The notes beneath the pieces are model-generated. The model searched no databases and was not told where the DNA came from. It saw nothing but the letters and a program-made list of their open reading frames with translations. Shown piece by piece: positions 26,995 to 29,399 of a stretch of 64,000 nucleotides of DNA. The stretch is from the NCBI GenBank assembly GCA_951406725.2, contig OX597826.1:75082001-75146000 (forward strand). Direction: 5' to 3'. The DNA comes from Octopus vulgaris. Taxonomy: Eukaryota. The stretch's first letter is position 1. Every line of letters begins with the position of its first letter. Position numbers and translations under genes: made by a program.

Positions 26995-27256
26995 AGGTAC
27001 ATGGCTTAGTGGTCAGTCTGTTGGACTTGTGATTGTAAGATTGCGGTTTCGATTCCTGAACCAAGCAATGCATTGTGTTCTTGAGCAAAACACTTCATTT
27101 CGTGTCGCTCCAATCCACTCAGCTGTATCATCAGCTGGAATTGAAACTGACCGTTTTAAGGCCTTGCGCAATAAAGCTTCCACTGGCCACATTTGGCCAT
27201 GAAGCTACTAACGTACGGGCCATAGCTGTGTTCATATGTGCAAGTCCCTTAGCTGA

Positions 27257-27324
27257 TGGAGATAAGCTCGGATGATCCTCTACTGATGCTAGAATGCCTG
27301 TCCACAGCCGTCCCCTTATCTCCA
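27257..27324 (+). ncRNA. Deleted/decayed copy of the 27.63-kb hammerhead unit
   Basis: Closing stem TGGAGATAAG...CTTATCTCCA; core reduced to CTGATGC-TAGAA-TGCCTGTC (stem II lost). Confidence 0.5.
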
Positions 27325-27629
27325 CACTGTAAACCACTCTTCTTTCCCAACAGCTTGTCAACTCTGGGGAAATTTCTCCCCTTCTTGCATAAAGCTGTTC
27401 TCCATTATCATTCAGTAATTGTGATACATCTTCTGGAGCCTGAAATAATTTTGATAAATCAAGAATTTATGTTGTATGGTATTTGATATACCTGTATTTA
27501 TCTTTGTTCTTCAGATAAATGTCACTGGCCACTCTCATTTATCTTAGTTCGTTTTTGATTAAATTATGCAAATTAATTAAACTGTAAATGTGTTCTACTC
27601 TTTTTTTACAAATCTAAGTCTCCTGGCAA

Positions 27630-27711
27630 CTGGAGATAAGGTTAGACAAATGTCATGCTGATGATGCCTATCAAGGCAGAAACATATCCCCAACTGTCCT
27701 CATATCTCCAG
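27630..27711 (+). ncRNA. Type I hammerhead ribozyme candidate with extended stem I
   Basis: CTGATGA (27658-64), stem II TGCCT-ATCA-AGGCA, GAAA (27679-82), CATA-TC (putative cleavage after 27688). Distal stem I pairs GACA/TGTC and CTGGAGAT/ATCTCCAG. Stem III and proximal stem I carry mismatches. Confidence 0.65.
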
Positions 27712-27794
27712 ACTATAAACCTGTCCCCTTTCCTTAATGGTATATCAATCTTTGATTCTTGATATTATCTCTCTTCATAAAGAGCTGCTTGTAA

Positions 27795-28393
27795 CCCTTT
27801 AGCATTTAAACTGACCATCTCTGGCCCAGATATTCAATCTGTTTTATGGTCAAGCTGGCCAGATCTGACTTCTCACACCAACCCTACAATGTCATTCTAA
27901 AATTATACAATCACATCATTGAAATCTCATTGCTATGAGATAATGCATGATTAATTCAAAAGCGCTATACTGGCACTAGTGCCCATGCTAGTAGGGTGCC
28001 AAGAGCGCCATCTGAGCGTTATCGTTGCCAGAGCGACTAACTAGTTTCCATGTCGGTGGCACGTAAAAGGCACCATTCGAGCGTGATCGTTACCAGCGTC
28101 GCCTTACTGGCACATGTGCAAAAAGATTCAAGCGAGGTCGTTGCCAGTACCACCTGACTGGCTCCGCACCGGTGGCACGTAAAAAGGACCCACTACACTC
28201 TCGGAGTGGTTGGCGTTAGGAAGGGCATCAAGCCGTAGAAACTCTGCCAGATCAAGATTGGAGCCTAGTGCAGCCATCTGGTTCGCCAGACCTCAGTCAA
28301 ACTGTCCAACCCATACTAGTATGGAAAGCGGACGTTAAACGATGATGATGATGAGAATGATGAATTTGACAGAGTAATCTCAATGACAAAGGC
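27795..28393. mobile_element. piggyBac-type MITE with a nested family D SINE (27962-28353)
   Basis: GTAA-CCCTTTAGCATT ... AATGACAAAGGC-TTAA; a partial inverted copy lies at ~7345-7441. Confidence 0.6.
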
Positions 28394-28467
28394 TTAAGCT
28401 GACCATTGATAAATGATACATCCTCTAATCACAGAGATAAGCTTAATAAATCAAGAATTTATGTTGT

Positions 28468-28808
28468 TCGGAGACCCCCTTCGGTCACGACACAGACCAT
28501 GGGATTGCACCTAGAAAGTTACCCTCCTAGACACAAGTCCAGGCGAGGTTGTTTATGGAAGACCAGCAGTCGCCCATGCATACCAGCCTCCCCTCTCCAC
28601 GCCACCAGTGTTATCCAAGGGAAAGACAAAGGTCGATACAGCTTGGCACCAGTGACGTCGCAACTCATTTCTACAGCTGAGTGAACTGGAGAAACGTGAA
28701 ATAAAGTGCCTTGCTCAAGAACACAATACGCAGCCCGGTCTGGGATTCGAGCTCACAACCTCACAATCGTAAGCTCGACGCTCTAACCACTGAGCCATGC
28801 GCCTTCAC
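28468..28808 (-). mobile_element. SINE family C variant with 12-bp TSD
   Basis: TSD AATTTATGTTGT at 28456-28467 and 28809-28820; the same variant occurs at 60655-61000. Confidence 0.85.
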
Positions 28809-29399
28809 AATTTATGTTGTATGGTATTTGATATACCTGTATTTTTCTCTGGTCACTCTGTGTCATCTCTCTTCATTTTTGTTTAATATATAAGTCGTTA
28901 GTCAGCAATGTCTATTGACTTGTTTATCTTAATTAATCTCTATTTACACACCTAAGTTTGGTTATTCCTTACGTGATTATTATTTTCCAGTTCTTGTATT
29001 TGCAATGAGTGTTTCCAGCAATGTTCAATAACATCTCTTCCAAAAGATTTCGCTTGTTTTAATAATTCTGGTTTCTTTCTGTTCTATGGTTCTTTGGGTA
29101 CATTCATACATACACATACTCGTGTGTGTGTATTTGTGTGTGTGTATGTGTGTGTGTGCGTGCGTATATGTGTGTGTGCGTGTGTATGTGCATATGTATG
29201 TACATATGAACGTTTATGTATGTATGCATGAATATCTATGTATGTGTGTACGTATATATGTATGTATGCATTATATATGTATGTATGGATGTATTCATAT
29301 ATATATATGTATGAATGTATGTATGTGTATGTATATATACATATATATATTATACATATATATTTATATACATACATATATATATGTTTTCTGTATATA

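Follow-up and report, generated by a model that had tools for sequence, protein, structure and literature searches.

In the 64,000-nt stretch of Octopus vulgaris DNA analyzed in this study (referred to as the window), two neighboring repeat units on the forward strand are probably an old dimer, likely inactive by now, that derives from a family of the non-LTR retrozyme type, a reading to which we assign a probability of about 0.7. Retrozymes are parasitic repeats known from mussels, corals, and salamanders. Judged from matching contigs of four organisms, the unit belongs to a high-copy, non-coding repeat family. An earlier interpretation of the bare letters (the sequence-only reading) had proposed an old retrozyme-like family or, alternatively, tandem pLTRs of a Penelope-like element; this proposal is supported by the abundance of copies, the hammerhead restored with letters of relatives, and the homology of the units.

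Sequences and comparisons

Contigs from the runs X1, X3, X7, and X9 (organisms A, B, C, and E), i.e. from four of eleven runs, none of the eleven being on record as RNA, were compared with positions 27110–27815 at 80% likeness. Variant letters were taken from the best 40 of 189 rows, and 37 of these 40 entered the comparison of the two units, leaving out 27728, 27741, and 27774. The letters of paralogues were pooled over contigs and are unphased; because of this pooling, an intact single copy is deduced rather than seen. For alignment, unit 2 was joined from 27616–27794, 28398–28467, and 28821–28957 (386 nt) with excision of 27795–28397 and 28468–28820. In the hammerhead model, 10 of the 24 pairs were set beforehand by hammerhead geometry and stem II, and the others come from folding the letters of the window. 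The predicted cut sites after C27302 and C27688 were derived from hammerhead geometry.

Two homologous repeat units

Unit 1 (27242–27615, + strand) comprises 374 nt with 36% GC and is uninterrupted apart from a short deletion running through the hammerhead stem II. Unit 2 follows on the same strand in three parts, namely 27616–27794, then 28394–28467, which starts with a copy of TTAA and ends with the left copy of a SINE target duplication, and finally 28821–28957, which closes at CTAAGT, the register where units 1 and 2 begin. Since start and end of the array share one register, the array amounts to almost exactly two units.

After in silico removal of the insertions, the units were 74–75% identical over the whole length; the 374 nt of unit 1 and the 386 nt of unit 2 agreed at 257 of 349 ungapped columns, so that the alignment extends far beyond short motifs. 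The local alignment scored 222; dinucleotide shuffles (n = 300) averaged 56.8 and never scored above 81.5. When the unit was divided into thirds, all 300 shuffles were outscored by the part with the hammerhead and also by the tail part, and the middle third alone was not above chance (score 31, shuffle maximum 32, 300 shuffles). A repeat search recovered a 25-nt pair at 27242 and 27616 (spacing 374, 76% identity) as well as the matches 27422–27475 with 28414–28467 (80% identity) and 27464–27509 with 28809–28854 (93% identity). Thereby, the homology of 27242 and 27616 at a distance of 374, which the sequence-only reading had claimed, was borne out together with the full-length alignment, as was its downstream block recurring behind the insertions of unit 2, and all motifs it had quoted are present at their positions. 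Its unit length of about 374 bp holds as the spacing of 27242 and 27616 but not as the length from cut to cut, which is 386 nt; the spacing is shorter because of the deletion in unit 1.

No third unit or further copy was found in the 64-kb window, where blastn and a two-sequence profile recovered only the four known pieces, and the tandem-repeat finder gave no row for the unit pair. The flanks did not resemble the unit significantly: aligned with the unit tail, the upstream flank was equaled by 66 of 1,000 shuffles, and aligned with the unit head, the downstream flank by 263 of 1,000. In the upstream flank, positions 27173–27245 have a motif of 10 nt and short words in colinear order in common with the unit tail (the 66 in 1,000 shuffles as good apply here), and this segment may be a decayed partial unit.

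Insertions in unit 2 and other repeats of the window

Unit 2 is split by a MITE-like insertion (27795–28393, strand not assigned) located between GTAA and TTAA, the first 85 nt of which recur at 7352–7436 with 82% identity. Nested in it is an abundant SINE-like repeat (27961–28362, ends approximate, strand not assigned), for which blastn gave 32 additional rows in the window. The second interruption (28468–28820) consists of a SINE-like insertion at 28468–28808, placed on the – strand according to a tRNA-like head at its right end, and the right copy (28809–28820) of a 12-nt target duplication, the left copy of which is 28456–28467. This insertion has eight further blastn rows in the window, including one full-length relative at 60655–60987 (82%). 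Putatively, 27795–28393 is a piggyBac-type MITE, and 28468–28808 and 27961–28362 are SINEs. The insertions, the target duplication, and the nesting described in the sequence-only reading were confirmed, and its names for the element classes are kept as provisional assignments.

Contigs of organisms B, C, and E extend from unit 2 into the start of the MITE with 5–8 other letters. Because of these junction contigs, both the MITE and the unit 2 that it interrupts likely predate the split of the four organisms, and the nested insertions, one of them common to the four organisms, provide a relative date. In organisms B and C, the orthologue-like contigs (27625–27813) include approximately 78 letters beyond 27625 that do not fit the window, and the structure upstream of unit 2 may be different in these two organisms.

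Other repeats were observed elsewhere in the window. Short tandem duplications with periods of 254 and 184 (87–88% matches) and no hammerhead core are located at 35595–36058 and 43022–43376, and an array with a 102-nt period (approximately six copies, 93%) lies within a CCA-rich simple repeat at 53545–54139. A stop-free frame of 213 amino acids at 14357–14998 (+ strand) represents a reverse transcriptase fragment, whose protein has 405 relatives, the best of them 78–89% identical and many with PF00078.

Hammerhead motifs in the window letters

The candidate type I hammerhead of unit 2 spans 27632–27709 on the + strand and comprises the core CUGAUGA (27658–27664), a 5-bp stem II (27665–27678), GAAA (27679–27682), a stem III region (27682–27687), a predicted cut after C27688, and an interrupted stem I of approximately 19 bp. 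The pattern CUGANGA...GAAA...UH with helix II is present at 27658–27688 with 5 of 5 pairs in helix II, and CUGAUGA with a 5-bp stem II and GAAA (27658–27682) is the sole such core in the window when both strands are searched. Such a core arose in 13 of 20,000 shuffles of a 553-nt region, so that core and stem II together exceed chance expectation there, and in 6 of 100 shuffles of the whole window. The hammerhead claimed for unit 2 by the sequence-only reading is therefore real with respect to core and stem II, but it is incomplete in the window letters: the outer stem I has 9 of 9 pairs, the middle part 4 of 5, the inner part 2–3 of 5, and stem III 1 of 2 without a palindrome. Mismatches are located at 27644, 27650, 27655, 27686, and 27690, where paralogues pair. 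Furthermore, stem II closes at its base with U-A in place of the conserved G-C. Folding gave a z-score of −1.74 for 110 nt and −2.96 for a 90-nt trim. In a scan of the decayed window letters, no Rfam match reached the gathering score in the window, and no hammerhead was among the nine Rfam matches up to E 10 in 27000–29100.

In unit 1, a decayed hammerhead was located at 27258–27323 (+ strand), with CUGAUG at 27283–27288 and the GUC triplet kept at 27300–27302; it has lost stem II, just as had been noted from the letters before. Its outer stem I has 9 of 9 pairs (27258–27266 with 27315–27323) and its middle stem I 5 of 5.

A metagenome scan with the core pattern yielded four loci, which have only the core in common with the window. 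Two of them, L002 (1326–1349, – strand) and L004 (1501–1525, – strand), bear an identical core and 5-bp stem II in flanks unlike those of the window family, and these motifs look like hammerheads of other hosts. No frame of L002 or L004 was recognized by eye as Penelope-like.

The repeat family in four organisms

The number of matching contigs was 1,634 in X1, 1,989 in X3, 1,595 in X7, and 1,608 in X9, figures that do not represent a copy number, and about half of these contigs were less than 90% alike to the window. Further genomic copies of the unit, as anticipated in the sequence-only reading, are thus abundant in each of the four runs. Contig depth peaks at 27446–27500 and is unbroken across the unit junction. 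Positions 27110–27373 are without contig cover in X3, X7, and X9, a gap that is not evidence of absence.

Paralogous contigs with 19–29 other letters span the junction from tail to hammerhead, and other paralogous contigs contain the order from the hammerhead to the conserved block. In addition, the joints 27575→27454 and 27499→27415 go back in all four runs, with one or two contigs per run for each joint, among the 15 of 122 joints listed. With both junction orders and such joints present in the paralogues, the order of the unit would close into a circle. These joints and junction contigs fit head-to-tail or permuted copies without proving arrays.

Restoration of the hammerhead with paralogue letters

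Seven of the best 40 of 189 variants fall into the ribozyme region 27632–27709, namely 27644, 27650, 27655, 27672, 27673, 27686, and 27690; five of these seven restore a pair, two are located in loop II, and none affects the core. Across the runs, the paralogue letter accounted for 58–70% of the depth at 27644, 57–71% at 27650, 35–47% at 27655, and 61–81% at 27690. At 27686, the stem III letter reached 30%, 42%, 49%, and 65% depending on the run (3–7 contigs each) and was the minority in three of four runs. With all seven pooled letters, pairing increased from 20 to 24 of 24, which was matched by 1 in 3,000 random edits of the same type; the five majority letters alone gave 22 of 24 pairs, matched by 69 in 3,000. 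The gain in free energy was modest, since 117–119 of 3,000 random edits were equally good. Inner helix I obtained 5 of 5 pairs with the pooled letters, and the paralogue letter at 27686 creates a palindrome at positions 15.1–16.1, changing the duplex energy from +1.0 to −4.6 kcal/mol. Hence, a foldable type I hammerhead including the predicted stem III, for which the sequence-only reading had looked to a family consensus, is restored by the pooled letters of the relatives.

The palindromic stem III letter of 27686 is also present in unit 1. More generally, unit 1 bears the paralogue letter at seven of seven alignable listed places within the first 75 nt of unit 2, including 27686 and 27690; three more listed places in this part fall into alignment gaps, and the evidence from unit 1 is independent of the runs.

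Predicted monomer and proposed mechanism

The predicted monomer from cut to cut extends from 27303 to 27688 on the + strand, is 386 nt long and insertion-free, and its ends can form 10 of 10 outer stem I pairs. Folded as a circle and compared with 40 shuffles each, it had a z-score of −2.0 with the window letters and of −3.2 with 31 majority letters. The energy changed from −73.4 to −84.9 kcal/mol with the majority letters, and 5 of 150 random edits were as good. The array neither begins nor ends at the cut site, its two borders lying approximately 70 nt further upstream, and no target duplication is evident.

By analogy with known retrozymes, transcription of intact arrays would proceed on the + strand, and two neighboring hammerheads would pair via the stem III palindrome; this dimer pairing is proposed because one base pair and a four-base palindromic loop are too weak alone. 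The paired hammerheads would cut after C17 and yield a monomer of about 386 nt, which would be ligated to a circle, and a Penelope-like reverse transcriptase would copy the RNA into multimeric DNA at new sites. Subsequently, the present locus would have decayed, with unit 1 losing stem II and unit 2 gaining mismatches beside the cut site as well as three younger insertions. Due to these changes, the locus is probably no longer self-cleaving.

Comparison with retrozymes and Penelope hammerheads

With 374 and 386 nt, 34–36% GC, and no recognized frame, the units lie within the range used for retrozymes (150–450 bp, GC below 45–50%, non-coding). Mussel retrozymes are described with 350–390 bp and a GC rule of under 45% (PMC7229834). 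As in the retrozymes of Mytilus galloprovincialis described there, the unit is non-coding, tandemly arranged, and of low GC, without visible LTR features, and it belongs to a high-copy family in which each unit would bear a single canonical type I hammerhead and arrays would comprise two units or more; unlike them, the locus studied here is decayed and interrupted, and roughly half of its matching relatives fall below 90% likeness. The comparison is one of descriptions. The same source reports for salamander satellite-2 and axolotl HHR_Amex1 a 1-bp helix III with a palindromic tetraloop and efficient cutting only as a dimer. A 1-bp helix III with a palindromic loop is also predicted here from the pooled paralogue letters and unit 1, in combination with a stem I that is longer and bulged compared with HHR_Amex1.

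According to PMC4209133, the canonical hammerheads of metazoans possess a palindromic loop on a helix III of 1–2 bp and cleave as dimers within tandem repeats; metazoan Penelope hammerheads are minimal, with a helix II of 7–8 bp, a helix I that is short, and hardly any or no helix III. The type I topology, the palindromic helix III positions, and the partial tandems resemble hammerheads of Penelope pLTRs (PMC4209133; 10.64898/2026.07.22.740005). In contrast to these, the motif studied here is canonical with a helix II of 5 bp and a helix I of approximately 19 bp. Li, Clavereau and Pollet 2026 call a retrozyme active when a complete hammerhead is present in two consecutive units (10.64898/2026.07.22.740005); two complete consecutive hammerheads are absent at the locus, with unit 1 being without stem II and unit 2 being mismatched, which places it outside this definition.

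Alternative origins of the array

As the main alternative, the unit could be a pLTR that belongs to an autonomous element of the Penelope-like kind. The locus would then be a 5′-truncated partial tandem with no circle family of its own, whose hammerhead would process the RNA of the full-length element. Insertions of Penelope-like elements frequently take the form of truncated partial tandems whose pLTR bears hammerheads (10.1101/2021.04.23.441226), such elements make up 6.83% of the Octopus vulgaris annotation (PMC13282606), and array ends that do not coincide with the cut site would be in line with this origin. Moreover, Xenopus retrozymes match pLTRs (10.64898/2026.07.22.740005), so that the two classes grade into each other, and Penelope-like elements are the likely source and mobilizer of retrozymes. 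Nevertheless, we consider this origin unlikely, as the motif is canonical and not of the minimal Penelope kind (PMC4209133), the order of the unit appears to be closed head to tail in relatives, and a six-frame reading of the units and flanks at this locus recognized neither a coding remnant nor a Penelope-sized frame with reverse transcriptase or GIY-YIG. Within the accessible text of 10.1101/2021.04.23.441226, Octopus is named only for Naiads, which are without hammerheads.

Even less probable is the duplication of a solitary hammerhead-bearing copy at the DNA level, by unequal crossover or slippage, in which case the dimer would be uninformative on multimeric RNA intermediates and the family may be satellite-like. 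Both array ends at one register would fit such an event, and local amplification of retrozymes was proposed in 10.64898/2026.07.22.740005. The 37 listed places speak in both directions: the units share the same non-majority letter at 10 of them, seven of which lie in the poorly aligned tail, but the other unit has the family letter at 14, including the seven of seven alignable places in the best-aligned part, and at 13 there is a gap or a third letter. The 14 family letters indicate that each unit mostly decayed on its own, starting from a family-like state, and paralogues spanning the junction at other loci likewise argue against a purely local origin. We regard it as highly improbable that the repeat is real and its hammerhead a chance motif of a hairpin-rich non-coding repeat. 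The missing Rfam match, the core in 6 of 100 whole-window shuffles, the z-score of only −1.7 over about 100 nt, and the match of the core pattern to four unrelated metagenome loci, one of them inside coding-like sequence, would agree with chance. Against it, the paralogue letters complete exactly pairs that were fixed beforehand by hammerhead geometry, the GUC triplet is kept at the matching place in unit 1, and no variant among the best 40 of 189 affects the core. A decayed dimer of the retrozyme type therefore remains our preferred interpretation.

Significance for cephalopod repeats

None of the papers listed in a literature search reports a cephalopod retrozyme. The words "octopus" and "cephalopod" do not occur in the main text of PMC7229834, the supplement of which may list cephalopods, no mollusc is sampled according to the accessible text of 10.64898/2026.07.22.740005, and the word "ribozyme" is absent from the available parts of the cephalopod repeat papers PMC13282606 and PMC8967140. 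The family may be catalogued in Repbase or Dfam as a Penelope-like or unknown repeat. Judged from the letters of the locus and its relatives, the range over which non-LTR retrozymes occur appears to be extended to a further mollusc lineage, represented by a large ribozyme-bearing family that was missed by Rfam at a decayed locus and unlisted by the tandem-repeat finder.

Because this kind of element is known in numerous animals and the copy is probably dead, the gain is one for the catalogue and for evolution; this would change with the discovery of live copies and circles. There is a small chance that the family retains intact, transcribed arrays, which would constitute the first cephalopod retrozyme and whose dimer-dependent hammerheads would release RNA circles of about 386 nt that are for the most part self-paired. 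Cephalopods are characterized by massive A-to-I editing. If true, such circles would allow a natural test of whether A-to-I editing modulates ribozyme cleavage and accounts for the sequence heterogeneity of retrozyme circles.
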